Virus record (IMG/VR): IMGVR_UViG_2681813004_000014
Location: 1 to 15,890 of that record
Direction: 5' to 3' (one strand)
From: a virus
Taxonomy: Duplodnaviria; Heunggongvirae; Uroviricota; Caudoviricetes
Length of the DNA: 15,890 nucleotides
This document shows, piece by piece, positions 1 through 14,640 of this stretch (position 1 is the first letter of the stretch; each line of letters begins with the position of its first letter). Under the pieces are notes generated by a model. The model was not told the DNA's origin and made no database searches. It worked only from the letters and a program-made list of their open reading frames with translations. The position numbers and the translations under genes are program-made.

Positions 1-78
1 CCGCTGAGCAGGCGGTCGGTTCTGGGCAGGGTCGGGTTCGTCCTGAAAACTCCCCCCCACCCCGTCCGGCTGCCTCAT
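1..78 (-). CDS. N-terminal fragment of a gene continuing past the left window edge (possibly a terminase subunit)
   Basis: ATG at 76-78 on minus strand overlaps the upstream stop (ATGA coupling); reading frame MRQPDGVGGEF... stays open to position 1. Identity is a guess from operon context. Confidence 0.3.
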   Translation of the reverse strand, partial: MRQPDGVGGSFQDEPDPAQNRPPAQR

Positions 79-260
79 CAGCGATTGCGAAAACATTCCA
101 TGACCTCGCGGTCACGGTCGGTTAATCGCTTCGCTGTGGTGCGTTTTGTGCGCCCTGTCCTGTTGGCTTTGTGCTCTGTCTCCTGTGTCTTCCATGTGTC
201 ACGCTGCCTTATCAGTCCACGTATCAGCCTGGTTTGCTCCTGTTCAGTCATCATCGCCAT
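78..260 (-). CDS. Hypothetical small basic protein (~60 aa)
   Basis: C-terminal part of track ORF 78..494; the N-terminal part overlaps the HNH gene in another frame, so an internal Met (MAMMTEQEQTRLIRGL...) is the likely start. Rich in R/K/T, no recognised motif. Confidence 0.3.
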   Translation of the reverse strand: MAMMTEQEQTRLIRGLIRQRDTWKTQETEHKANRTGRTKRTTAKRLTDRDREVMECFRNR

Positions 261-684
261 ACATCCAGTCGTTACGGTGTGCCGCCCGTTCTTCCTGCTC
301 GCGATACATGCCCGCTTTACGGTTTGCTTTCGTGGCTGGATCTTCCCGTGTGGTCTTACGGTTGTGGCACGTCTGGCACAATGCCTGGTGATTCCACTCA
401 GGCCAGAAGAGAACATCATTACCGCCATCGATGGGGATAATGTGATCCACCACCACGGCGGGCGTGTATATTCCTTTTTCCAGGCAATGCGCACATAACG
501 GGTTTTTACTCAGGTACATAGCGCGGTATTTCTCCCACTGCCTCGTATACCCTCGCTCCCTGCTGCTGCCTCTCCGGCTGTCCTGCTGCTGGCGTGCGCT
601 GCGTCTGTGCTCCTCACACTTCCCGGACTTCACGCGCCTGTTGCAGCCTGGTTGTGTGCATCGTCTCAATGGTTGCCACGGCAT
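244..684 (-). CDS. HNH endonuclease
   Basis: Cys-rich N-terminus (CTQPGCNRRVKSGKCEEH) and HNH core motif DHIIPIDGGNDVLFWPEWNHQALCQTCHNRKT; start overlaps the upstream connector stop. Confidence 0.8.
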   Translation of the reverse strand: MPWQPLRRCTQPGCNRRVKSGKCEEHRRSARQQQDSRRGSSRERGYTRQWEKYRAMYLSKNPLCAHCLEKGIYTPAVVVDHIIPIDGGNDVLFWPEWNHQALCQTCHNRKTTREDPATKANRKAGMYREQEERAAHRNDWMYGDDD

Positions 685-980
685 CAGTACACCCCCACAT
701 CACGATAAACCGACCAGAGCGCGGAAATCGTCAGGGGAATTTCTTTTGTATCGGTATCGCCAAGCGTTGTCCGGTACTCGTACAGTTGCGAGATGTACAT
801 CAGGCAACCAATTTTTATTGCAGGGGTAAATTCCAGGCCGTCATCAAAACGCCTGCCAATATGCTTCTGGCATACCTCCAGCGCCGCGCTTATGTATGCC
901 TGAATCAGTGTGTCTTCTGTGTTACCATCTATGCGGCAGTGAAGTTTGGCCTCTTCCAGGGTTATTTTTTCTGCTGTCAT
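684..980 (-). CDS. Head-tail connector protein (gp6-like)
   Basis: 98 aa, N-terminus MTAEKITLEEAKLHCRIDGNTEDTLIQAYISAA typical of gp6-like connectors; sits in the head operon. Confidence 0.7.
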   Translation of the reverse strand: MTAEKITLEEAKLHCRIDGNTEDTLIQAYISAALEVCQKHIGRRFDDGLEFTPAIKIGCLMYISQLYEYRTTLGDTDTKEIPLTISALWSVYRDVGVY

Positions 981-1315
981 TTTTCTGTACCCACCTTTGC
1001 CAGAATTTCCAGCCGGGTTCTTTTCGCATCAGGTAAGGGGATCCCGATGATATTAAGCGTGCTCCCGGCAAAAGCGCCGGTAAGCACTTTCAGGCGACTG
1101 GCGGCGGATATGTCGCCACGATAGCGAACCCATACCCGAATCGTTGCAGGTGCGGTTTCTGCGCCTGCGGTCAGTAATTCCCGTCCGCTGATCCCCTTGA
1201 CCTCTGCCCAGATGGTTTCCCCTTCCGTCCATATCTGCTGGATCGCACCTGACGGCAGGCGCTGTGTGGTAAATGTCATAATCGTCACCCGGTCCCGCAT
1301 CTTTCCGGCTATCAT
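977..1315 (-). CDS. Head closure / head-tail adaptor protein (gp7 / SPP1 gp16-like)
   Basis: 112 aa with MRDRVTI...IWAEVKGISGRE...IRVWVRYRGDI pattern; 4-bp overlap with portal stop. Confidence 0.65.
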   Translation of the reverse strand: MIAGKMRDRVTIMTFTTQRLPSGAIQQIWTEGETIWAEVKGISGRELLTAGAETAPATIRVWVRYRGDISAASRLKVLTGAFAGSTLNIIGIPLPDAKRTRLEILAKVGTEK

Positions 1316-2529
1316 TCGTCACCGCCCTTACTGTTCTTGCTGATTGTCACTTCCTGCTTCCATGCCTGGCTGAACTCGTCACCACCTTCACGCGGCGGCA
1401 TTCCCTCACGCTCACGGGCTTCGTTCGGATTGATGATCCCGTTCTTAATCCCTTTCTCATACGTGGCGTAACGTTCGGTAGGGGTGGCGCGTAATAAATC
1501 GGCTGAATCAAACTCAACCAGATAACGGGTTCCAGGCACGGGAGAAGCCACCAGCAAAGCGGCCTTGATTTGCTGTTCGAAGTTCGCCAACCAAGGACGC
1601 ATTGTCATGGTCAGAAACGCGCGGCTTGCCTCACTGAAATTGCTGTAGGTGCTGTTGCTGTATTCCTGCAAAAAAATCGGCGAGACGTTGAACATTCGGG
1701 CGATGTCTTCAATGGTAAAGCGACGGGAGGCCAGCCATTCAGCATCCTGATTACTCATGCCCAGCTGCTGATAGCTCATACCCCCTTCAAGGATGGGCGT
1801 TTTTCCGGCGTTTCTGGCCCCTTTGTAGCGTTCCAGTGCGGCTAATGCCTGTTTGCCCTTCACGCCGTCCAGCCATTCGCCTGACGTGATAACCCCTGCC
1901 GCCATCATGCCATCACGCATCACGCTCGCGCCGTGGCGTTGTTGGGCCAGCCCAAGCCCCAGCGATTCGCGGCAGATGGTTACAGGTGAGCGCCCCATAA
2001 AGCCGTCATCCGTGGAGTAACGAAGGTGGAGAACCTCCCACGGTAAATAGTTGCGGGTGTTTCCGGTGTAGGCGTCAGTGATGCAGTAGCGCCAGTTATG
2101 CTCACCTGTCTGCTCCACGTTCACCGACTGCGGCGGGTAAGGATGTAAAGCCACCGGAAAACCATCACGCCCCCACTGAATCACCGCATAAGCATTACCG
2201 TTTAACAGGCAGTGGCGGATCATCATTCGCTTAAACTGGTAGGGGGTTTGCCATGCGTTCGGGCGCTCGTTGAGGATGTGATCGACCGGATGAGAATCAA
2301 GCCACTCGCGGGCCTCCTTCCCCTTCTCATTGCGTACCAGGTACAGGTAACACGGCATGGTAGCCACCGCCTCAGAGATGACCGTCACGGCGTTCATGAC
2401 GGCGGGCAGTGATTCCGCTGTCCCCGATGATACGTACTCACCCGCCCCCGTGTTCGATGTGCCCGCCAGCGCCATAAATTCATCAAGCGTCATGCTGCGC
2501 TGCTCTTTTTTTCTTCTGAAAAGCCACAT
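1312..2529 (-). CDS. Portal protein, HK97 family (copy 1)
   Basis: 405 aa; near-identical to ORF 3552..4760 except the C-terminal tail; immediately upstream of prohead protease. Confidence 0.85.
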   Translation of the reverse strand: MWLFRRKKEQRSMTLDEFMALAGTSNTGAGEYVSSGTAESLPAVMNAVTVISEAVATMPCYLYLVRNEKGKEAREWLDSHPVDHILNERPNAWQTPYQFKRMMIRHCLLNGNAYAVIQWGRDGFPVALHPYPPQSVNVEQTGEHNWRYCITDAYTGNTRNYLPWEVLHLRYSTDDGFMGRSPVTICRESLGLGLAQQRHGASVMRDGMMAAGVITSGEWLDGVKGKQALAALERYKGARNAGKTPILEGGMSYQQLGMSNQDAEWLASRRFTIEDIARMFNVSPIFLQEYSNSTYSNFSEASRAFLTMTMRPWLANFEQQIKAALLVASPVPGTRYLVEFDSADLLRATPTERYATYEKGIKNGIINPNEAREREGMPPREGGDEFSQAWKQEVTISKNSKGGDE

Positions 2530-2530
2530 A

Positions 2531-3103
2531 TCACACCCCCGCTAAATCCACCCACCAGCGGCGATTATCCGCACGCGGCATTTTTTCGGGGTGCTGCTCA
2601 TACAGGGAACGGCGGGCCAGCTCCACGCCGGAATCGGGGTAAGCCGGTACCGATGTAACGGTAATTTCGTACAGTTCCGCCACCAGCACGGTACGAACGC
2701 ATGGATCTGTTGTGGTATCCCATACATCCTTACGGGAGCGAAAGCCAAAGCTCATGCCGGATATATCACCGCGTTTAACCAGTTCGATAACGTCGCGCCC
2801 TGTACTGGTATCCGGTGGGGTCAGTTCAAAGCGTAACCCTGTTTCGTCCTCTTCCAGTTTCAGCGTGCCGGAACGGGTGCGCCCCAGTAACATGCTGTGG
2901 TCATGCTCATACAGGCCGCGAACGTCATTACCCGCCGCAAGCCATTCAGTAAACGCCCCCCGCTGGAATTTTTCGTAAAACTCACCCCATAACAGTTCTG
3001 AAAGCTTATCCCAGCGAACAACGTAGCCCGTCAGCGTACCGGCTCCGCTCGTGGTGATTTCCGATGACCGGATTTCCATACTCTTCATAATTTTTTCACC
3101 CAT
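2531..3103 (-). CDS. Prohead protease, HK97 family (copy 1)
   Basis: 190 aa with DHSMLLGRTRSGTLKL and GMSFGF motifs; identical in protein sequence to ORF 4762..5334. Confidence 0.85.
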   Translation of the reverse strand: MGEKIMKSMEIRSSEITTSGAGTLTGYVVRWDKLSELLWGEFYEKFQRGAFTEWLAAGNDVRGLYEHDHSMLLGRTRSGTLKLEEDETGLRFELTPPDTSTGRDVIELVKRGDISGMSFGFRSRKDVWDTTTDPCVRTVLVAELYEITVTSVPAYPDSGVELARRSLYEQHPEKMPRADNRRWWVDLAGV

Positions 3104-3113
3104 AAAACACTAA

Positions 3114-3131
3114 AGGGGCTTTTAAGCCCCT
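3114..3131 (-). terminator. Hairpin 3' of the capsid-derived ORF (copy 1 of duplicated unit)
   Basis: Inverted repeat aggggct/agcccct with 4-nt loop followed on minus strand by a T-rich run; possible partial terminator or mRNA stabiliser. Confidence 0.3.
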
Positions 3132-3142
3132 TCTGTATGCTG

Positions 3143-3559
3143 TTAATCGTCGTCCTGTGGCAGTTCCAGAATCTTGATCGCGTTCGAATCCACCACGCCA
3201 CCGCCTAAATATTTCTGCGTGAAAATTTTGATGAAGCCCGGCTCTGTGATGTTGTCCGGTCTGGTGCGAACACCTGTTTCGTGATCAACAATGTAGTAAC
3301 CGCGTTTGAAGTCACCCAGGGCAATAACGTTATCAGGCATAAACTCCAGATATTCGACCGGAAGGCCCAGCAACGTATCAGGATCACCCGCCTGTAAACG
3401 GTCGCGCCAGATGTAATCACCGTTCGCGTTCTTCACCTTCTGAAGTTTTGCCGATGACGCGTTTCTTGTATACATTTTCAGAAGTTCGCCTTCTCCGGAA
3501 AAGTCATCAAGGCGAAGATGTGCCCTGACTTCATCAGGTGTAATTTTTTCTTCACTCAT
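3143..3559 (-). pseudogene. Chimeric ORF: gp6-like connector N-terminus (~35 aa) fused in frame to the last ~103 aa of the major capsid protein
   Basis: C-terminal part is identical to the end of capsid ORF 5374..6576; N-terminus MSEEKITPDEVRAHLRLDD resembles the start of connector ORF 684..980; Shine-Dalgarno-like aaggtg sits 6 nt upstream of ATG at 3559. Track ORF extends to 3640 but that region overlaps portal copy 2. Confidence 0.55.
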
Positions 3560-4760
3560 CTTTTTCACCTTTAATTTCCACCGTCTGCTTCCATGCCTGG
3601 CTGAATTCGTCGCCACCTTCACGCGGCGGCATCCCCTCACGTTCGCGGGCTTCGTTCGGATTCATGATCCCGTTCTTAATCCCTTTCTCATACGTGGCGT
3701 AACGTTCGGTAGGGGTGGCGCGTAATAAATCGGCTGAATCAAACTCAACCAGATAACGGGTACCAGGTACGGGAGAAGCCACCAGCAAAGCAGCCTTGAT
3801 TTGCTGTTCGAAGTTCGCCAGCCACGGGCGCATTGTCATGGTCAGAAACGCGCGGCTTGCCTCACTGAAATTGCTGTAGGTGCTGTTGCTGTATTCCTGC
3901 AAAAAAATCGGCGAGACGTTGAACATTCGGGCGATGTCTTCAATGGTAAAGCGACGGGAGGCCAGCCATTCAGCATCCTGATTACTCATGCCCAGCTGCT
4001 GATAGCTCATACCCCCTTCAAGGATGGGCGTTTTTCCGGCGTTTCTGGCCCCTTTGTAGCGTTCCAGTGCGGCTAATGCCTGTTTGCCCTTCACGCCGTC
4101 CAGCCATTCGCCTGACGTGATAACCCCTGCCGCCATCATGCCATCACGCATCACGCTCGCGCCGTGGCGTTGTTGGGCCAGCCCAAGCCCCAGCGATTCG
4201 CGGCAGATGGTTACAGGTGAGCGCCCCATAAAGCCGTCATCCGTGGAGTAACGAAGGTGGAGAACCTCCCACGGTAAATAGTTGCGGGTGTTTCCGGTGT
4301 AGGCGTCAGTGATGCAGTAGCGCCAGTTATGCTCACCTGTCTGCTCCACGTTCACCGACTGCGGCGGGTAAGGATGTAAAGCCACCGGAAAACCATCACG
4401 CCCCCACTGAATCACCGCATAAGCATTACCGTTTAACAGGCAGTGGCGGATCATCATTCGCTTAAACTGGTAGGGGGTTTGCCATGCGTTCGGGCGCTCG
4501 TTGAGGATGTGATCGACCGGATGAGAATCAAGCCACTCGCGGGCCTCCTTCCCCTTCTCATTGCGTACCAGGTACAGGTAACACGGCATGGTAGCCACCG
4601 CCTCAGAGATGACCGTCACGGCGTTCATGACGGCGGGCAGTGATTCCGCTGTCCCCGATGATACGTACTCACCCGCCCCCGTGTTCGATGTGCCCGCCAG
4701 CGCCATAAATTCATCAAGCGTCATGCTGCGCTGCTCTTTTTTTCTTCTGAAAAGCCACAT
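3552..4760 (-). CDS. Portal protein, HK97 family (copy 2)
   Basis: 402 aa; same as copy 1 except a different C-terminal tail (…KQTVEIKGEKDE). Confidence 0.85.
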   Translation of the reverse strand: MWLFRRKKEQRSMTLDEFMALAGTSNTGAGEYVSSGTAESLPAVMNAVTVISEAVATMPCYLYLVRNEKGKEAREWLDSHPVDHILNERPNAWQTPYQFKRMMIRHCLLNGNAYAVIQWGRDGFPVALHPYPPQSVNVEQTGEHNWRYCITDAYTGNTRNYLPWEVLHLRYSTDDGFMGRSPVTICRESLGLGLAQQRHGASVMRDGMMAAGVITSGEWLDGVKGKQALAALERYKGARNAGKTPILEGGMSYQQLGMSNQDAEWLASRRFTIEDIARMFNVSPIFLQEYSNSTYSNFSEASRAFLTMTMRPWLANFEQQIKAALLVASPVPGTRYLVEFDSADLLRATPTERYATYEKGIKNGIMNPNEAREREGMPPREGGDEFSQAWKQTVEIKGEKDE

Positions 4761-4761
4761 A

Positions 4762-5334
4762 TCACACCCCCGCTAAATCCACCCACCAGCGGCGATTATC
4801 CGCACGCGGCATTTTTTCGGGGTGCTGCTCATACAGGGAACGGCGGGCCAGCTCCACGCCGGAATCGGGGTAAGCCGGTACCGATGTAACGGTAATTTCG
4901 TACAGTTCCGCCACCAGCACGGTACGAACGCATGGATCTGTTGTGGTATCCCATACATCCTTACGGGAGCGAAAGCCAAAGCTCATGCCGGATATATCAC
5001 CGCGTTTAACCAGTTCGATAACGTCGCGCCCTGTACTGGTATCCGGTGGGGTCAGTTCAAAGCGTAACCCTGTTTCGTCCTCTTCCAGTTTCAGCGTGCC
5101 GGAACGGGTGCGCCCCAGTAACATGCTGTGGTCATGCTCATACAGGCCGCGAACGTCATTACCCGCCGCAAGCCATTCAGTAAACGCCCCCCGCTGGAAT
5201 TTTTCGTAAAACTCACCCCATAACAGTTCTGAAAGCTTATCCCAGCGAACAACGTAGCCCGTCAGCGTACCGGCTCCGCTCGTGGTGATTTCCGATGACC
5301 GGATTTCCATACTCTTCATAATTTTTTCACCCAT
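4762..5334 (-). CDS. Prohead protease, HK97 family (copy 2)
   Basis: Protein identical to copy 1. Confidence 0.85.
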   Translation of the reverse strand: MGEKIMKSMEIRSSEITTSGAGTLTGYVVRWDKLSELLWGEFYEKFQRGAFTEWLAAGNDVRGLYEHDHSMLLGRTRSGTLKLEEDETGLRFELTPPDTSTGRDVIELVKRGDISGMSFGFRSRKDVWDTTTDPCVRTVLVAELYEITVTSVPAYPDSGVELARRSLYEQHPEKMPRADNRRWWVDLAGV

Positions 5335-5344
5335 AAAACACTAA

Positions 5345-5362
5345 AGGGGCTTTTAAGCCCCT
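5345..5362 (-). terminator. Hairpin 3' of the major capsid gene (copy 2 of duplicated unit)
   Basis: Same inverted repeat as 3114..3131, offset by 2231 bp. Confidence 0.3.
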
Positions 5363-5373
5363 TCTGTATGCTG

Positions 5374-6576
5374 TTAATCGTCGTCCTGTGGCAGTTCCAG
5401 AATCTTGATCGCGTTCGAATCCACCACGCCACCGCCTAAATATTTCTGCGTGAAAATTTTGATGAAGCCCGGCTCTGTGATGTTGTCCGGTCTGGTGCGA
5501 ACACCTGTTTCGTGATCAACAATGTAGTAACCGCGTTTGAAGTCACCCAGGGCAATAACGTTATCAGGCATAAACTCCAGATATTCGACCGGAAGGCCCA
5601 GCAACGTATCAGGATCACCCGCCTGTAAACGGTCGCGCCAGATGTAATCACCGTTCGCGTTCTTCACCTTCTGAAGTTTTGCCGCCGTTGTGGAGTTAAC
5701 CACCCATACCGCGTTCTTGCGGTATTTTTTACGCAATGCAAATTTCAGGTCGATCAGCGGGTCCGCAGATGTCCACGCCAGACCGTGAGCGGGCTTGATA
5801 ACCTGCAACGTTCCGAAGTCGCGTTCTTTGTCGCTCTTCTCTGCACGGGGGACGGATAAAAAGCCTTTTGCTTTTTTGTCACCGTCGCCCACAACCAGAT
5901 CGCTTTCTTCGGTTTCCGTGAAGGTGTCGCCAATCTCGCCCGTCAGCCATGAAAGGATGTCCACATCGGAAAAATCCACGATTTCCTGTGTGGTGCGCGG
6001 GTACGCATAGACCGGATACAGCTTAATGCTCACCTCGTTAATCTTCGGGGTGCTGGTCTGTTCGCGTGCCTTACCCTCTTCACCGTGGTTAACGGTCGCA
6101 CCGCCAGCGGAAACAAGCTGCTTAAACTCGTTGCTGCTGATTTTCTTCACGGTACAGATGCGGCGCATGGTGGATTCATCCGCCAGTATTCGCATGATTT
6201 CGGTGTTCAGTTCGGGGATAACGGTATAACCACCATCAGCGGCAACGCCTGTACTTAATGCGCGGGTTTCACCTGTCAGAATGTAGTTGCGTAGTTCTGC
6301 GGGGTCAGTGGTCTGACTGCTTTTACCTGGCTTGCTGCGCTCTTCGTCTGCAATGGCTTCAAGGCGGGAAATGTCTTTATCGAGGGATTCAGCTTTAGCG
6401 CGTAATTCGTCAAATTTTGCGCCCTCAGCATCGTTAAGACTGCGGTTTTCTTTTTCCGCGTTCTCCAGCATGTCGCGCATCTGATTTTTAATGGCGGTTT
6501 TCTGCTGGCGTAATTCGATTATTCTCGGCATAAAAAAAAGTCCTGGGGTTAAGTAAGGAACTCCAGGACGCGACAA
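5374..6576 (-). CDS. Major capsid protein, HK97 family, with N-terminal coiled-coil delta domain
   Basis: 400 aa; N-terminal heptad-rich segment (IIELRQQKTAIKNQMRDMLENAEKE…) then a capsid-like body. Track start at 6576 is a TTG; an ATG at 6531 (MPRIIELRQQ) is an alternative start. Confidence 0.85.
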   Translation of the reverse strand: MSRPGVPYLTPGLFFMPRIIELRQQKTAIKNQMRDMLENAEKENRSLNDAEGAKFDELRAKAESLDKDISRLEAIADEERSKPGKSSQTTDPAELRNYILTGETRALSTGVAADGGYTVIPELNTEIMRILADESTMRRICTVKKISSNEFKQLVSAGGATVNHGEEGKAREQTSTPKINEVSIKLYPVYAYPRTTQEIVDFSDVDILSWLTGEIGDTFTETEESDLVVGDGDKKAKGFLSVPRAEKSDKERDFGTLQVIKPAHGLAWTSADPLIDLKFALRKKYRKNAVWVVNSTTAAKLQKVKNANGDYIWRDRLQAGDPDTLLGLPVEYLEFMPDNVIALGDFKRGYYIVDHETGVRTRPDNITEPGFIKIFTQKYLGGGVVDSNAIKILELPQDDD

Positions 6577-6902
6577 ACACTCAACCGTTTTTCATAAGGA
6601 AATCAGCAATCGCACCGATCGTTTTCCCGCCTGGTAATGAATATTGGCGAGCACATTAACAGGCGGTAAAGTGGCCCCAGCGTCCTGGCACCACGGGCGA
6701 GAATAATCATGATTCAGTTCGGGTAAAATATGCCGATCCGCTCAGTGAACAACCTGGAACAACCACGAACAAATAATTTACAAAACCTGAAAAAATAAAT
6801 AAGCTGTTCCGTACATTTTCTGCTCGTTAATCAGGAGGAACGAACTATGTCAGAAAATGAACTGAAAAAAGCAATGTTCATTCAGCAACACTTCTAAAAA
6901 TA

Positions 6903-6928
6903 ATGGCCTGGAAAATACCAGGCCATTA
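6903..6928. terminator. Bidirectional terminator-like hairpin
   Basis: Inverted repeat aatggcctgg / ccaggccatt with 6-nt loop; T-rich run follows on the minus strand directly after the stop of ORF 6934..7182. Confidence 0.45.
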
Positions 6929-6933
6929 TTATT

Positions 6934-7182
6934 CTACCGTTTCACGGGATCACGCATTCTGCGCCTTATTTTCCACAGATATTCGATCATCGCTTCCACC
7001 TGCTCACGGTTGGTTGCGAAAATTTCCCCGGTCAGTGAGCTGCGCAGAAAATCATTATGATCCACAAAAAATAACGCATCGGAAGAAAGCAGACGGCGAT
7101 ATTTTTTTGCTGTCGTGGTTTCCAGATCATCAAAACCATGAAACTTTTTATGTTGCTGGACTTCTTCAAATGTCACTGGCAT
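6934..7182 (-). CDS. Hypothetical protein (~82 aa)
   Basis: Track ORF 6934..7221; the internal ATG at 7182 is preceded by aggagg at 7-nt spacing, so it is the preferred start. No recognised motif. Confidence 0.5.
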   Translation of the reverse strand: MPVTFEEVQQHKKFHGFDDLETTTAKKYRRLLSSDALFFVDHNDFLRSSLTGEIFATNREQVEAMIEYLWKIRRRMRDPVKR

Positions 7183-7227
7183 GTTTCCTCCTGCTGCCAC
7201 GATACCAGAAACAGTTAACAACCGTTA

Positions 7228-7509
7228 TCAATTATCCCTTTTTTTCGGGTAGTTCCTGAACATCTCACCGCCAGGTTTCTGTAAGCCAATCCCGGTATGT
7301 GTGCGGTTTATGGCCTCTTTCAGTATTCCGAAATTATCCGGTATGACTGGTGGGCGTGCTGCCTTACGGATACATTCCGCGCGACGCTTTGCCACTTGTT
7401 CGCGCTCCTTGTCAGTGCTCACCAGCCACATAACATCAGCCCAACGTGCCGCCGCTCTCCGGTACAGCCCTTTAGCCTCCAGTTCTTCCGCTTTGCTGTC
7501 TTTAATCAT
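7228..7509 (-). CDS. PerC-like transcriptional regulator (putative)
   Basis: ~93 aa starting MIKDSKAEELEAKGLYRRAAARWADVM, a pattern I associate with PerC-family prophage regulators; gaggt lies 5-6 nt upstream of ATG 7509. Assignment is from memory of the family. Confidence 0.5.
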   Translation of the reverse strand: MIKDSKAEELEAKGLYRRAAARWADVMWLVSTDKEREQVAKRRAECIRKAARPPVIPDNFGILKEAINRTHTGIGLQKPGGEMFRNYPKKRDN

Positions 7510-7543
7510 GCTGTACCTCACTGCTTAAAACGGTATCCCGTCC

Positions 7544-7815
7544 CCGTACGGATCATCGTGCTGGCCTGTCTGTTGTTTTGCCCTGTTCAGTGCGTCAGTA
7601 GCCTGGCCCTGCTGGCCTTTTTTGCCGCCCGGTCGCACTGTCCGCGCACTGATTACGCTGTCTGCGATGACCTGCCAGCCCGTACGGATCATCGTGCTGG
7701 CCTGTCTGTTGTTTTGCCCTGTTCAGTGCGTCAGTGGCCTGGCCCTGTTGACCTTTTTTGCCGCCCGGTCGCGCCGTTCGCGCACTGATTACGCTGTCTG
7801 CGATAACCTGCCAGC
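7544..7815. repeat. Tandem 136 bp duplication (2 copies, a few mismatches) at the 3' end of ssb
   Basis: 7544..7679 and 7680..7815 align at a 136 bp offset with a handful of substitutions. Confidence 0.85.
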
Positions 7816-8086
7816 CCTGCCGCGTTTCGCCGTTCTGGCCTGTCCACTGGCTTACCTGCATGTTACCCGCCACGCTCACCAGTTCGCCTTTCTGGTGTTT
7901 TGCCAGTGCCTCGGCCTGTCTGCCAAACGCCAGGACGGATAACCACATCGTCGCCGTTCCGTCATCTGCCTGGCTGCACGGAAGGGGGACCGCCATACTC
8001 GCCATCGCCATTTGTGTCCCCTTGCTGGTCTGTTTTACCTGCGGGTCAGCCACCAGCCGCCCGTAAGCTGCTATCTGTGCTGTCAT
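7595..8086 (-). CDS. ssb: Single-stranded DNA-binding protein with frameshifted C-terminus
   Basis: N-terminal OB-fold-like region (…TMWLSVLAFGRQAEALAKHQKGELVSVAGNMQVSQW…). The 136 bp duplication is not a multiple of 3, so the ORF ends in an out-of-frame tail; the canonical ending …HDDPYGDGIPF* is present in another frame, stopping at 7526. Confidence 0.7.
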   Translation of the reverse strand: MTAQIAAYGRLVADPQVKQTSKGTQMAMASMAVPLPCSQADDGTATMWLSVLAFGRQAEALAKHQKGELVSVAGNMQVSQWTGQNGETRQGWQVIADSVISARTARPGGKKGQQGQATDALNRAKQQTGQHDDPYGLAGHRRQRNQCADSATGRQKRPAGPGY

Positions 8087-8334
8087 GCTGTCTGCTCTCC
8101 GGTTTTAACGTTGATGGTTGTTACCTGTTCCGCTCCGGCAATCTCCCGTTGTGTCAGCGTGGCAAAGTTTGCCGCCGCTGTGGTCATGAATGCGCTAATC
8201 AGTTCGGGATGCGCTTTCGCGTATCCTTCTCCGGCGTGGCGGTCTATCGTTCTGATTGCCACCTTTAAGGCGTGCTCTGTCATGTCTAACGCTTTATATT
8301 TTGGCGCTGTCTTATCTCTGGTTTTTCTGTTCAT
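8083..8334 (-). CDS. Hypothetical protein (start uncertain: 8364, 8334 or 8283)
   Basis: Track ORF 8083..8364; the 5' part lies inside the iteron array, so a later start is more plausible. Stop overlaps ssb start. Confidence 0.4.
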   Translation of the reverse strand: MNRKTRDKTAPKYKALDMTEHALKVAIRTIDRHAGEGYAKAHPELISAFMTTAAANFATLTQREIAGAEQVTTINVKTGEQTA

Positions 8335-8550
8335 TCCCCACCACTCCCCACTTTTGCTCCCCACTTTTTAAATTCCCCACTTGCTCCCCACCTCGTTTTT
8401 TGAGTGAATGTAATGCTTTGTTTTTCATTGCGTTTTTTACTCCCCACTTTTTTGGATGTATACAGGTGGGAAAGTGGGGAATTATGTTTCAATTTTGTTA
8501 AATTCCCCACTCTCCCCACTTTTACTACCCACTTTTTACAGTGGGTAAAC
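8334..8550. repeat. Iteron array, putative replication origin
   Basis: At least 9 direct copies of (t)tccccac(tttt), inverted copies near 8463-8482, an AT-rich spacer around 8394-8440, and a palindrome tacccac…gtgggta at 8526-8546; directly 3' of the replication gene. Confidence 0.6.
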
Positions 8551-9942
8551 ATCATCCCCATCGACACAAATCACGCCGTCTTTTTCCAGCTTGGACAGCC
8601 AGCGCCGGAAGTGCTTCATCTCATACCCCAGCTTTTTCATATCGTCGCGGAGAAGGGCGATAGTGCATGGCTCTTTGTGTGCCGTCCGCGTTCTGATGCA
8701 CTGCCATAGCGCGGCGTGATTCTCCGATTTGTTGCCTGCTTCCTCGATGCGCTCCAGTTCAGCAGGGGCGCGGGGAACGTCAATCACCACCATAGACACA
8801 ATCTCTTCCCCATCGGTATCGGTAAACACCTCCACGCTTTTAAGGTCGTATGCACTCTCTTTTGGCTCCTCTGCGTCCTTCATCTTCGTACACGCCGCCA
8901 CCAGTGCTGTAACGTCTGAATTTTCCCGGCTGATTCGGTACTCTGCATCAAGCGCGGCACGGAATGCGCTGGAACCACGCGCCCCCTTTGTTTCATCCTT
9001 GCCGGAATGGTGAACCACCAGCACCGTGGCCCCTGTGGCCTGCTTTATCGCGTCACACCCCTGGATAAATGCGCCCATATCACGGGAATCATTTTCATCA
9101 TTCCCACCAAAGCAACGGGCCAGTGTGTCGATCACAATCAGCCGCACATTTTCGCCCGTTCTGCTCTTAACAAGTCCGGCAGTCCTGATAACCTGCTCCA
9201 CATAGTCAGGCGATGCAGGGAAAACAGGCGCGTTAATGATGCACAAATCTGTAACCACCTTGTCGTGGGTTATCTCCCACGCCTTAACGCGGCGTTTTAC
9301 GCCCATACTGCCTTCGCCAGCGATATAGATAACCGCGCCCTTACTCACCCTGCGGCCTCCCCATGCCATACCTGTGGCAACATGGCACGACCAGGAAATG
9401 GCGAGGAACGATTTATAAGAACCGCTGGCCCCGTAGGTGCTGCATAATGACTCAGCCGGAATAAGCCCCTTAATGACGTAGCTTTGCTGCGCGTCGAATC
9501 CCTCAGAACCCCATGAGATGGGAAGCGTGATTTTTCTCTTTCCGCCATTCATGACCAGGCTTTCCCCTCTCTCCCATGTTTCCCGTAGTCGTGGTAGCTG
9601 GTCGCTCCAGTCCTCAAGCAGTTCGAAATTTTCAGAAAGTAGCCGCGCCTCCTGGACTCCGGCGATCGCCAGTTTTGTGGCAATGGTCAGCATCTGCATA
9701 TCGTCCAGGTTTCCGGCGCGTATGACCTTTACCCTGTATCGTCCTTCATCAACAATCTGTAAGTTGTCCAGTTCGCTTAACTGATAACGGCCCAGGTAAA
9801 CCGGAGGGATGGGATCGCCTGCTTTTTTGGCCTGTGCAATCATGTAATGTTCTGCAAAGGAGTGAGCATTATCACCCGCAAAAATAACCGCCTCAGTGTG
9901 TTTATCTTTCGGTAACAGTTTTACGTTCGGTGCAAGTTTCAT
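8536..9942 (-). CDS. Replication protein with RecA/RepA-like P-loop ATPase domain (putative primase-helicase)
   Basis: 468 aa; Walker A-like YGASGSYKSF, Walker B-like RLIVIDTLARCFGGNDEND, then VLVVHHSGKD…RGSSA, as in RepA/AAA_25-type replicative ATPases. Confidence 0.75.
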   Translation of the reverse strand: MKLAPNVKLLPKDKHTEAVIFAGDNAHSFAEHYMIAQAKKAGDPIPPVYLGRYQLSELDNLQIVDEGRYRVKVIRAGNLDDMQMLTIATKLAIAGVQEARLLSENFELLEDWSDQLPRLRETWERGESLVMNGGKRKITLPISWGSEGFDAQQSYVIKGLIPAESLCSTYGASGSYKSFLAISWSCHVATGMAWGGRRVSKGAVIYIAGEGSMGVKRRVKAWEITHDKVVTDLCIINAPVFPASPDYVEQVIRTAGLVKSRTGENVRLIVIDTLARCFGGNDENDSRDMGAFIQGCDAIKQATGATVLVVHHSGKDETKGARGSSAFRAALDAEYRISRENSDVTALVAACTKMKDAEEPKESAYDLKSVEVFTDTDGEEIVSMVVIDVPRAPAELERIEEAGNKSENHAALWQCIRTRTAHKEPCTIALLRDDMKKLGYEMKHFRRWLSKLEKDGVICVDGDDVYPL

Positions 9943-10226
9943 TTCTTACCCCCTGCGACCAGCATTTCACGGATTTTGCGGATATAACTTGCAGCACGTT
10001 TCTGATTAACGGCTTTACGATGGCCCACCAGCGTGAAATCACGCCGGAACTGATAAACAGGCATAACGCAGTCATATTCGTAGCCATCACGGCGGTAAGT
10101 GATGCGCCGTTCCTCCACGCCCTTAATCATTACCGTGCCGCCGTAGTTATCACGGAAAATATCGCCGGGACGGATTTCAGGACGAGCGGGGCCGCTGGCA
10201 TTAACGCCAGAATTTTTATTTTTCAT
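9939..10226 (-). CDS. Hypothetical protein (95 aa)
   Basis: ORF in the early operon with 4-bp overlap to the replication gene; no recognised motif. Confidence 0.5.
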   Translation of the reverse strand: MKNKNSGVNASGPARPEIRPGDIFRDNYGGTVMIKGVEERRITYRRDGYEYDCVMPVYQFRRDFTLVGHRKAVNQKRAASYIRKIREMLVAGGKK

Positions 10227-10231
10227 GTTTT

Positions 10232-10465
10232 TTATTCTCCGGTGTGCTGTTCTTTATATCTGTCGTGCAATAGGTCTATTTCCTGCAACTCTGTTATTAC
10301 AGGTTCAAGGAGAGTTATCAGAGATTTAATAATCCGCGCATTCTTTACATCACGCTCATTATCGCCAAATGTATCTGGATACATTTGCAATATTTCGTAC
10401 ATGCCTTCAGCGTAAGCAAGGGCACTAAATGCGCGGTCTATTGTTTCGTGGTAAATATCACGCAT
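10232..10465 (-). CDS. Hypothetical protein (77 aa)
   Basis: Tightly packed ORF in the same operon; no recognised motif. Confidence 0.45.
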   Translation of the reverse strand: MRDIYHETIDRAFSALAYAEGMYEILQMYPDTFGDNERDVKNARIIKSLITLLEPVITELQEIDLLHDRYKEQHTGE

Positions 10466-10466
10466 A

Positions 10467-11021
10467 TTAATCCCCGTCCGTCGTTTTTCTTAAAACAGTT
10501 TCCGTTACGAAATCAGCATAGTTAGCGGCGATATCAAGAATATTTAGCCCTGTATCCCTGTGCTCATCAGTGCAAAGAAAGAAAAAAGCCACCCGCATAA
10601 TTTCAGATATTGACGAAAGCGCATCAGCCGCATTATCAGGAACGCCGGAAAATTCCTGTTTCAGGGAATTAAAACGATCATCACGCATAACCCCCCCATT
10701 TTCACAATCAGCAATCAGGATGGCTTTAGCCTCATTCAGCGCCATATCAGCGGTTAGCTGTGCGTAGGCCAGCGAATGCGGGATTATTGCCCCTGTATAT
10801 TCCGGCTCTCTGGTAATGTGTTTTTCTGCGGTTGCTGCCGTGCATGAAATATCAATCAGCGCGTGCATTAGCGTTATGATGGCTTCGGCGGCTGCGTCCG
10901 GACGGATCTCTCTGGTAATGTGTTTTTCTGCGGTTGCTGCCGTGCATGAAATATCAATCAGCGCGTGCATTAGCGTTATGATGGCTTCGGCGGCTGCGTC
11001 CGGACGGATGTTATTGCACAT
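10467..11021 (-). CDS. Hypothetical protein (184 aa) with internal duplicated 34 aa segment
   Basis: Contains IRPDAAAEAIITLMHALIDISCTAATAEKHITRE twice in tandem. Confidence 0.5.
   Translation of the reverse strand: MCNNIRPDAAAEAIITLMHALIDISCTAATAEKHITREIRPDAAAEAIITLMHALIDISCTAATAEKHITREPEYTGAIIPHSLAYAQLTADMALNEAKAILIADCENGGVMRDDRFNSLKQEFSGVPDNAADALSSISEIMRVAFFFLCTDEHRDTGLNILDIAANYADFVTETVLRKTTDGD
10806..11009. repeat. Perfect tandem 102 bp duplication, in frame
   Basis: 10806..10907 is identical to 10908..11009. Confidence 0.85.
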
Positions 11022-11379
11022 GGCGCACCCCCTGAATAACCTGATATCCGCAACTGGTCAGCAATTCGATAAATTCCGGCAGTGTGCCGAAACAGCAATC
11101 ATCACGCAGCCGTTCGCAGGATACCTCGACGCCGTTTTCGTAGTGACTCACCATACATCCGGTAAAATGCAGATCATCATCGTGATGGCTCGTTGACGGT
11201 TTCATCAGTCGCGCACGTTCCGCCAGTTCAAGCAATGCTTCAACGCTTCCGGCAATTGCACCATCCGGCAGGTGATAATTACTTACTACGCGTCCATTCT
11301 CTACATTGACGAGTAGCTGTCCGGTAAATTTCTCACGAAACTGAACGCGGTTAAGATCGGTAAGTGACAGGTTAATCAT
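11011..11379 (-). CDS. Hypothetical protein (~122 aa)
   Basis: Internal ATG at 11379 (MINLSLTDLNRVQ…) is preceded by aggggg at about 7 nt; track ORF extends to 11496 but overlaps the upstream gene. Confidence 0.5.
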   Translation of the reverse strand: MINLSLTDLNRVQFREKFTGQLLVNVENGRVVSNYHLPDGAIAGSVEALLELAERARLMKPSTSHHDDDLHFTGCMVSHYENGVEVSCERLRDDCCFGTLPEFIELLTSCGYQVIQGVRHVQ

Positions 11380-11568
11380 GGTACACCCCCTGACGAATAC
11401 GGGCAGCGAATACAGCGACACAACCGGACGGGCAACGGTTACGCGCTTCGCGTTCTGTCCAGGCGGTGACGTGGATGATTTGGGATTCTCCGGCACTCAG
11501 TGCCAGAAAACGCCACACAAAGGCCGTTTGTGTGTGCGCTAGGCGTGGGGTATGCTGTTTTACAGCCA
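11372..11568 (-). CDS. Hypothetical small protein (~65 aa), first gene of the early operon
   Basis: ATG at 11568 with agaggt 7 nt upstream; MAVKQHTPRLAHTQTAFVWRFLAL…; the long track ORF 11372..12199 is rejected. Any resemblance to Icd-like small proteins is unverified. Confidence 0.4.
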
Positions 11569-14489: not shown

Positions 14490-14640
14490 CTCAAAAAACT
14501 GACCACACAACTGACCACACATTTCGTTGAAGCTCTACGAACAACGACGAACAATAACAAACAAGAAAACGAAACATTCCATTTAATATCAAATACATAT
14601 CCAAACAACCACGAACAACCCCGAACCACAAAAAACACTA
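14490..14640. promoter_or_regulatory. A/C-rich repeat region upstream of int
   Basis: Direct repeat aactgaccacac x2 (14497-14520), multiple gaacaa units, and the 15-mer AACAACCACGAACAA (14604-14618) that also occurs at 6758-6772. Confidence 0.3.

Follow-up and report, generated by a model that had tools for sequence, protein, structure and literature searches.

The accessory ssb gene of a phage satellite in Escherichia coli carries a 136-bp tandem duplication that shifts its reading frame away from the conserved C-terminal tip, and the two repeat copies are alleles of different satellite lineages, with the change of lineage falling at the junction between them. The arrangement is unique to a single contig. 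We favor, with modest confidence, a model in which the two alleles were joined by illegitimate recombination, which would have left a private loss-of-function ssb in a heavily rearranged satellite.

The window, that is, the whole stretch of DNA analyzed, is all of contig AOTC01000266.1 (15,890 bp), read in reverse orientation, from the draft E. coli assembly GCA_001447405.1. The assembly comprises at least 266 contigs, and this one 15.9-kb contig is the sole source of the duplicated ssb.

The satellite and its duplicated ssb gene

Genes on the minus strand of the contig follow an order that begins with the chromosomal genes rcnA and rcnR, next to which the satellite is integrated, followed by a tyrosine integrase (PF00589), a 239-aa ORF, an AlpA-type regulator (PF05930), and several small ORFs. 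The middle part encodes a DUF4222 protein, a replication module in the form of a 468-aa RepA-family helicase (AAA_25), ssb, and perC. The end holds genes for the major capsid protein, prohead protease, portal, head-closure protein, connector, and an HNH endonuclease, and this capsid and head module is matched by the profiles PF05065, PF04586, PF04860, PF05521, PF05135, and PF01844. The contig stops just past the HNH gene; in PEC148 and LH50-c, the closest closed-genome relatives of the island, a P27-family terS and terL lie immediately beyond that point. Neither the called genes of the contig nor the annotated islands of PEC148 and LH50-c include tail or lysis genes. The gene order matches the architecture that defines cfPICIs (PMC10085698), which identifies the element, as judged from its gene content, as a capsid-forming PICI-type phage satellite (cfPICI).

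Directly downstream of the helicase gene, CCCCACTTTT occurs six times, with at most one mismatch each, inside 190 nt (8346–8536), against a chance expectation of 1.4. These repeats are iteron-like and probably mark the replication origin of the satellite.

The ssb gene and its surroundings are described below by the following features, in which L013 denotes a related IMG/VR contig and lineage X denotes the sequence type that occupies 7679–8250.

7595–8086, minus strand: ssb ORF as encoded, 163 aa (WP_058101051.1), with OB fold, linker, and out-of-frame tail
7815–8086, minus strand: unduplicated 5′ part of ssb, codons 1–91, the bulk of the OB fold; lineage X
7679–7814, minus strand: proximal 136-bp copy, in the correct SSB frame (...GWQVIADSVISARTARPGG...DDPYG); haplotype TAGCTAC
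7543–7678, minus strand: distal 136-bp copy, one nucleotide out of frame; haplotype CGATCGT
7676–7681, minus strand: novel junction 7678/7679, in gene orientation ...CCGTACGGG/CTGGCAGGTC..., with 3-nt GGG microhomology
7525–7542, minus strand: last five canonical codons and stop, GAC GGG ATA CCG TTT TAA = DGIPF*, out of frame with the start
7615–7621, minus strand: AAA-AGG-C heptamer, put in frame by the duplication; candidate +1 slippage site
6674–7678, minus strand: L013-like lineage patch with the distal copy, perC (7228–7509), and a downstream ORF

In a repeat search by self-comparison, the segments 7543–7678 and 7679–7814 align as direct tandem copies with 7 mismatches and no indels, and Tandem Repeats Finder reports the same structure (7543–7817, period 136, 2.0 copies, 94% matches, 0 indels, score 501). 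Chance would come nowhere near producing a repeat of 136 nt with 95% identity. The similarity extends 3 nt past the unit (7543–7681 versus 7679–7817), which constitutes a CCC/GGG microhomology. Because 136 equals 45 × 3 + 1, the duplication shifts the frame after ssb codon 136, and the 163-aa ORF runs on to terminate in ...QHDDPYGLAGHRRQRNQCADSATGRQKRPAGPGY, exactly the ending given in the original prediction of a frameshifting duplication that removes the ...DGIPF tip. The encoded C terminus thus reads ...RPAGPGY, and the acidic I-P-F tip (SSB-Ct) is absent from the ORF. In silico deletion of either repeat copy reconstructs a 141-aa SSB. Retention of the canonical ending in another frame was likewise borne out: the tip that closes the ...DDPYGDGIPF ending is still encoded out of frame at 7528–7542, as part of a 55-aa ORF on the minus strand (7525–7692, stop codon 7525–7527) that terminates in ...QHDDPYGDGIPF. 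No Shine-Dalgarno sequence is evident by eye at the internal ATG start of this ORF.

The OB fold had been predicted to be intact, and profile comparison agrees. The SSB family profile PF00436 covers residues 5–99, scoring 60.4 bits for the frameshifted protein and 60.8 bits for its reconstructed single-copy counterpart (cut-off, 26), and these nearly equal scores indicate that the duplication leaves the OB fold untouched. The fold also matches solved SSB structures in the PDB, including the E. coli SSB chains 1eyg and 1eqq, with E values down to 4e-11. Most of the linker is retained as well, but in place of DGIPF, the protein carries a 27-aa basic out-of-frame tail containing six K/R residues and one D/E residue. 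E. coli SSB no longer binds its partners in vitro once the SSB-Ct or just the terminal Phe is removed, and either deletion is lethal when the protein is the sole SSB of the host (PMC10164576). With its OB fold intact, the satellite protein should still fold, form homotetramers, and bind ssDNA, and it would be unable to dock partners via the SSB-Ct. The allele is best read as a private, recent, pseudogene-like loss of function without a designed role.

Single-copy relatives and the two alleles at the junction

The satellite ssb normally encodes 140–141 aa, in which a short linker connects the OB fold to a ...D-x-I-P-F tip. The gene is single-copy in all 82 related loci examined, and its product ends in D[DNGE]I[PQ]F in 80 of them (IPF in 78 and IQF in 2), which indicates that the tip is under selection in the family and that its loss here is a private lesion. 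Of the two exceptions, one is LH50-c, whose diverged 136-aa SSB still ends in DDIPF. In the other, L026, a CAG-to-TAG nonsense change at codon 116 of ssb (6789–7214) leaves a 115-aa tail-less SSB, an allele whose sequence indicates that the accessory ssb occasionally decays by routes other than duplication.

The ssb module is carried by 1,752 of 5,426 closed E. coli genomes, with up to six copies per genome. The junction is contiguous in none of the 5,426: a junction-centered query matches only as two permuted pieces, and the best matches span 1,065 nt of the 1,201-nt query, as they would with one copy of the unit. A 30-nt junction pattern has no match in GTDB species representatives, IMG/VR, or JGI metagenomes, and the 163-aa protein WP_058101051.1 is recorded from AOTC01000266.1 only. 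The ancestral state, which the original prediction had proposed to establish by comparing related islands, is on this sequence evidence from the 82 loci, the closed genomes, and the three other collections the single-copy form; a duplicated, tail-less ssb as the conserved state of related islands was not found.

Comparison of the two copies reveals their separate origins. Read in the SSB frame, six of the seven differences between them are synonymous third-position changes, and the seventh is A105V (P = 0.007 for at least six of seven random changes falling at third positions). The distal copy is nevertheless read out of frame, and the pattern must therefore have accrued when each copy still belonged to a working gene. 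Both haplotypes occur as single-copy alleles among the 82 loci examined, TAGCTAC (proximal) in 10 IMG/VR relatives and CGATCGT (distal) in one locus, L013. The distal copy (7543–7678) is 100% identical to L013, and identity over 6674–7681 is 99.2% (8 mismatches in 1,008 nt, none of them within 7358–7678). Across the junction, over 7679–8119, identity to L013 is 95.2%, with 21 differences in 442 nt, 7 of which lie within the proximal copy, and the contrast has a Fisher P of 3e-6. By this comparison the lineage changes exactly at 7678/7679, where one natural allele meets another with a register offset of 136 bp. The pre-existence of both haplotypes, together with the switch of flanking lineage at the junction, places their divergence before the join, and the differences between the copies are consequently silent on its age.

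Lineage X (7679–8250) finds its best match, among closed E. coli genomes and anywhere, at 96.3% identity. Over 441 nt it has one private site, and the rest are polymorphisms common to the pool. An interpretation of lineage X as an error-laden or collapsed consensus was rejected on this low count of private sites.

One claim of the original prediction did not survive these comparisons. The differences between the copies (7 of 136 positions) had been taken to mean that the duplication is no fresh slip, as would be expected if an old intragenic replication slip had produced copies that diverged in place and a long-standing tail-less SSB. Divergence in place is at odds, however, with the synonymous bias in a copy that is translated out of frame, and with the existence of both haplotypes as single-copy alleles. 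The distal copy, moreover, belongs to the L013 lineage together with the 1 kb downstream of it but not with the sequence upstream, and the junction is found nowhere else in the collections searched. An old slip is accordingly the least probable of the explanations considered, and we give it almost no weight.

In the favored recombination model, the ssb alleles of two satellite lineages would have been joined out of register at the 3-nt GGG microhomology when related satellites underwent one illegitimate, unequal recombination or one template switch. The join would have added 136 nt (3n + 1), such that translation would leave the SSB frame after codon 136 and stop at 7595. Exchange of DGIPF for the 27-aa basic tail would preserve ssDNA binding and abolish docking through the SSB-Ct.

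Rearrangement of the contig and competing explanations

The contig as a whole is a mosaic. In a sliding-window comparison, 1–6750 and 8250–9900 are 99–100% identical to the closed genome LH50-c, 6674–7681 is L013-like, and 7679–8250 represents a third lineage. Relative to the corresponding region of LH50-c (L003, 8100–9700), which has an extra 101-aa ORF, the entire ssb–perC module at 6750–8250 has been replaced, and the alignment provides an example of cf-PICI lineages exchanging modules. A GAACAACCAC/AACAACCACG motif forms short tandem runs at two places, one (6747–6772) at the point where the LH50-c-like backbone gives way to the L013-like lineage and the other (14604–14626) between the integrase gene and rcnR, close to the presumed attachment site.

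Two further duplications are present in the contig, and LH50-c has none of the three. The larger one is a near-tandem duplication of 2.2 kb that pairs 1354–3453 with 3585–5684 and duplicates the 3′ part of the capsid gene, the prohead protease, and the portal. Its copies differ by 12 mismatches, all within 1375–1597, and share 1,856 bp of perfect identity. The junction (3454–3584) opens with a 432-nt patch (3468–3899) resembling another related locus, L036, which represents a third lineage and contributes the 3′ end of the portal gene and 30 codons of a connector gene; next come 14 orphan nucleotides (3454–3467) that match neither parent, and after them mid-capsid sequence. The junction is fused in frame to the capsid C terminus, creating a 138-aa chimeric ORF. 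LH50-c lacks this duplication and is otherwise 100% identical. The smaller one is a perfect in-frame repeat of 102 bp (34 codons; 10806–11009) inside a 184-aa ORF (10467–11021), the single-copy counterpart of which is a 150-aa protein found on 14 contigs. Neither the 2.2-kb nor the 102-bp junction was found in the 5,426 closed E. coli genomes.

Among the 82 related loci (1.06 Mb), tandem duplications were detected only in L013, an IMG/VR contig of unknown assembly status. An independent in-frame duplication of 84 bp (28 codons) at L013 6474–6646 has its left boundary within 1 nt of that of the 102-bp duplication, and this shared boundary may indicate a recurrent duplication hotspot. Close to its end, the L013 contig also contains a heteroallelic duplication (99.1% identity) around perC, the period of which is 764 nt (10135–10692 and 10899–11456), and a 423-nt insertion follows the second copy.

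The explanation that competes most strongly with recombination is that the genome holds several related satellites and that an assembler or scaffolder stitched reads or contigs of two or three of them together, generating false tandem duplications; each real island would then carry an intact single-copy ssb. The window is a whole contig of a draft and apparently fragmented assembly; it contains three private tandem duplications within 15.9 kb, two of which combine different alleles and change lineage where the copies meet, on a backbone that is 99–100% identical to the duplication-free LH50-c. All three junctions are missing from closed genomes, the chimeric proteins are encoded on one contig only and appear in none of the independent read-level (Logan) assemblies, and E. 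coli genomes can hold up to six copies of the ssb module. Short reads cannot span the perfect 1,856-bp repeat, which the contig nevertheless contains in two copies. It would be improbable for one island to have undergone three real events independently of one another, unless a mechanism links them, and only one other contig among the 82 related loci, L013, shows tandem duplications at all. The form of the junctions, however, argues against stitching. Assemblers need overlap, and these junctions share just 0–3 nt, with a 14-nt orphan filler at the 2.2-kb junction, features that illegitimate recombination typically leaves and joining by overlap does not. Measured to the closest allele-specific variants, the copy ends are 9 nt and 57 nt away, unlike the k-1 spacing of de Bruijn unitig ends; on these distances, and on the mere 3 nt shared, the idea that two de Bruijn contig ends overlapped and were left unmerged was rejected. 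The contig is free of Ns. Its PerC allele is seen on this one NCBI contig only, with no second contig of GCA_001447405.1 on record that carries it; lineage X has its single private site in 441 nt; and the 102-bp duplication and the 84-bp duplication of L013, both in frame and sharing a boundary, look biological. Weighing these points, we infer with somewhat better than even confidence that the junction is real DNA produced by illegitimate recombination between satellites, and we regard an assembly chimera as a serious contender that falls short of even.

Two further explanations build on a real junction. Given the geometry of the duplication, restoring the tail requires a +1 ribosomal shift, and −1 frameshifting on the A-run was rejected as a means of rescue because the geometry demands +1. 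The sequence CAA-AAA-AGG-C lies in frame at 7624–7615, with AAA-AGG as codons 156–157, and an AAA codon in the P site would re-pair with AAA in the +1 frame. A slip at AAA-AGG-C might thus yield a minor, tip-bearing SSB of 186 aa, or the tail-less form might itself be useful as a dominant-negative protein or decoy. The required direction agrees with a heptamer in which a perfectly re-pairing P-site codon is followed by AGG, the rarest codon in E. coli (PMC7022156), and Lys-tRNA could move from AAA to AAA while the ribosome pauses at AGG. There is precedent in CCC-AGG-C, at which, with no other element, ribosomes shift +1 at a rate of about 5%, enough to rescue a +1-nt insertion in rpoB in E. 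coli (PMC7022156). In favor of such a product with its longer linker, the SSB linker tolerates large changes or deletions (PMC10164576). It is conceivable on these grounds that a minor 186-aa product with a longer linker and the DGIPF tip is made. On the other side, the heptamer is an accidental by-product of the wild-type sequence GGC-AAA-AAA-GGC; the arrangement occurs in no relative, all of which are single-copy and in frame, so that there is no sign of selection; and if only a few percent of the subunits had the tip, most tetramers would still be largely without tails. Rescue by leaky slippage, or an adaptive role, is therefore judged very unlikely. Scarcely more probable is a scenario that would link the three duplications as real products of one microhomology-mediated template-switching episode among cf-PICIs co-replicating in one induced cell, with ssb partly rescued by +1 slippage at AAA-AGG-C, so that a small fraction of long-linker SSB with the tip would accompany a tail-less majority. 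If it were true, template switching would represent a previously undescribed route for module exchange and length gain in satellites.

Implications and relation to known systems

The biological consequence of the recombination model would be small. At most, the satellite of one strain loses the tip of an accessory SSB, and the host keeps its essential ssb. Far from defining a new kind of SSB, the finding reflects either an isolated case of a broken gene or a chimera made in assembly; it amounts to an ordinary frameshift pseudogene in a known protein family and a known type of element. More generally, the locus illustrates that divergence between tandem copies cannot date a duplication when the copies may derive from different alleles, and that codon-position bias together with lineage tracing of the flanks can reveal a two-allele origin. 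A draft contig with several heteroallelic duplications needs read-level confirmation before biological conclusions are drawn from it. If the junctions are real, the contig would document, on a small scale, how phage satellites that reside together recombine illegitimately.

False tandem duplications that arise by mis-assembly of diverged allelic or paralogous copies are known in draft eukaryotic assemblies. The ssb repeat resembles them in being heteroallelic, in switching lineage at its junction, and in lying on a draft contig from a type of genome that often holds several related islands. In contrast to such artifacts, the junctions of the contig lack the usual overlaps or gaps, and one of them contains the orphan 14-nt filler.

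The element shares with EcCIEDL933 and other Enterobacteriaceae cfPICIs the order int–alpA–replication–ssb–perC–capsid–protease–portal–head closure–connector–HNH. It differs from them in that the contig ends short of terS/terL, and its three duplications, of 136 bp, 102 bp, and 2.2 kb, are seen in none of its relatives.

At the level of translation, the candidate slippage site recalls the rpoB allele with a +1-nt insertion, in which slippage occurs at CCC-AGG-C (PMC7022156): AAA-AGG-C likewise lies in the shifted frame, and a +1 slip there would restore the original one. Its P-site codon is Lys AAA, however, and not the Pro CCC of rpoB or the Leu CUU of Ty1 (CUU-AGG-C) and prfB (CUU-UGA-C). 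Unlike the known +1 sites, AAA-AGG-C is unconserved, accidental, and predicted from sequence.

The protein itself belongs with the homotetrameric SSBs of bacteria and phages (PF00436), with which it shares the OB-fold domain. The ...DDPYGD[GNDE]IPF ending of its single-copy relatives corresponds to an acidic I-P-F tip, comparable to ...DDDIPF in E. coli SSB, whereas the satellite protein differs from bacterial SSB in its short length of 141 aa, about 35 of which form the linker. In functional terms, the tail-less SSB encoded by the contig resembles the engineered variants SSB-deltaC8 and SSB-deltaF (PMC10164576).
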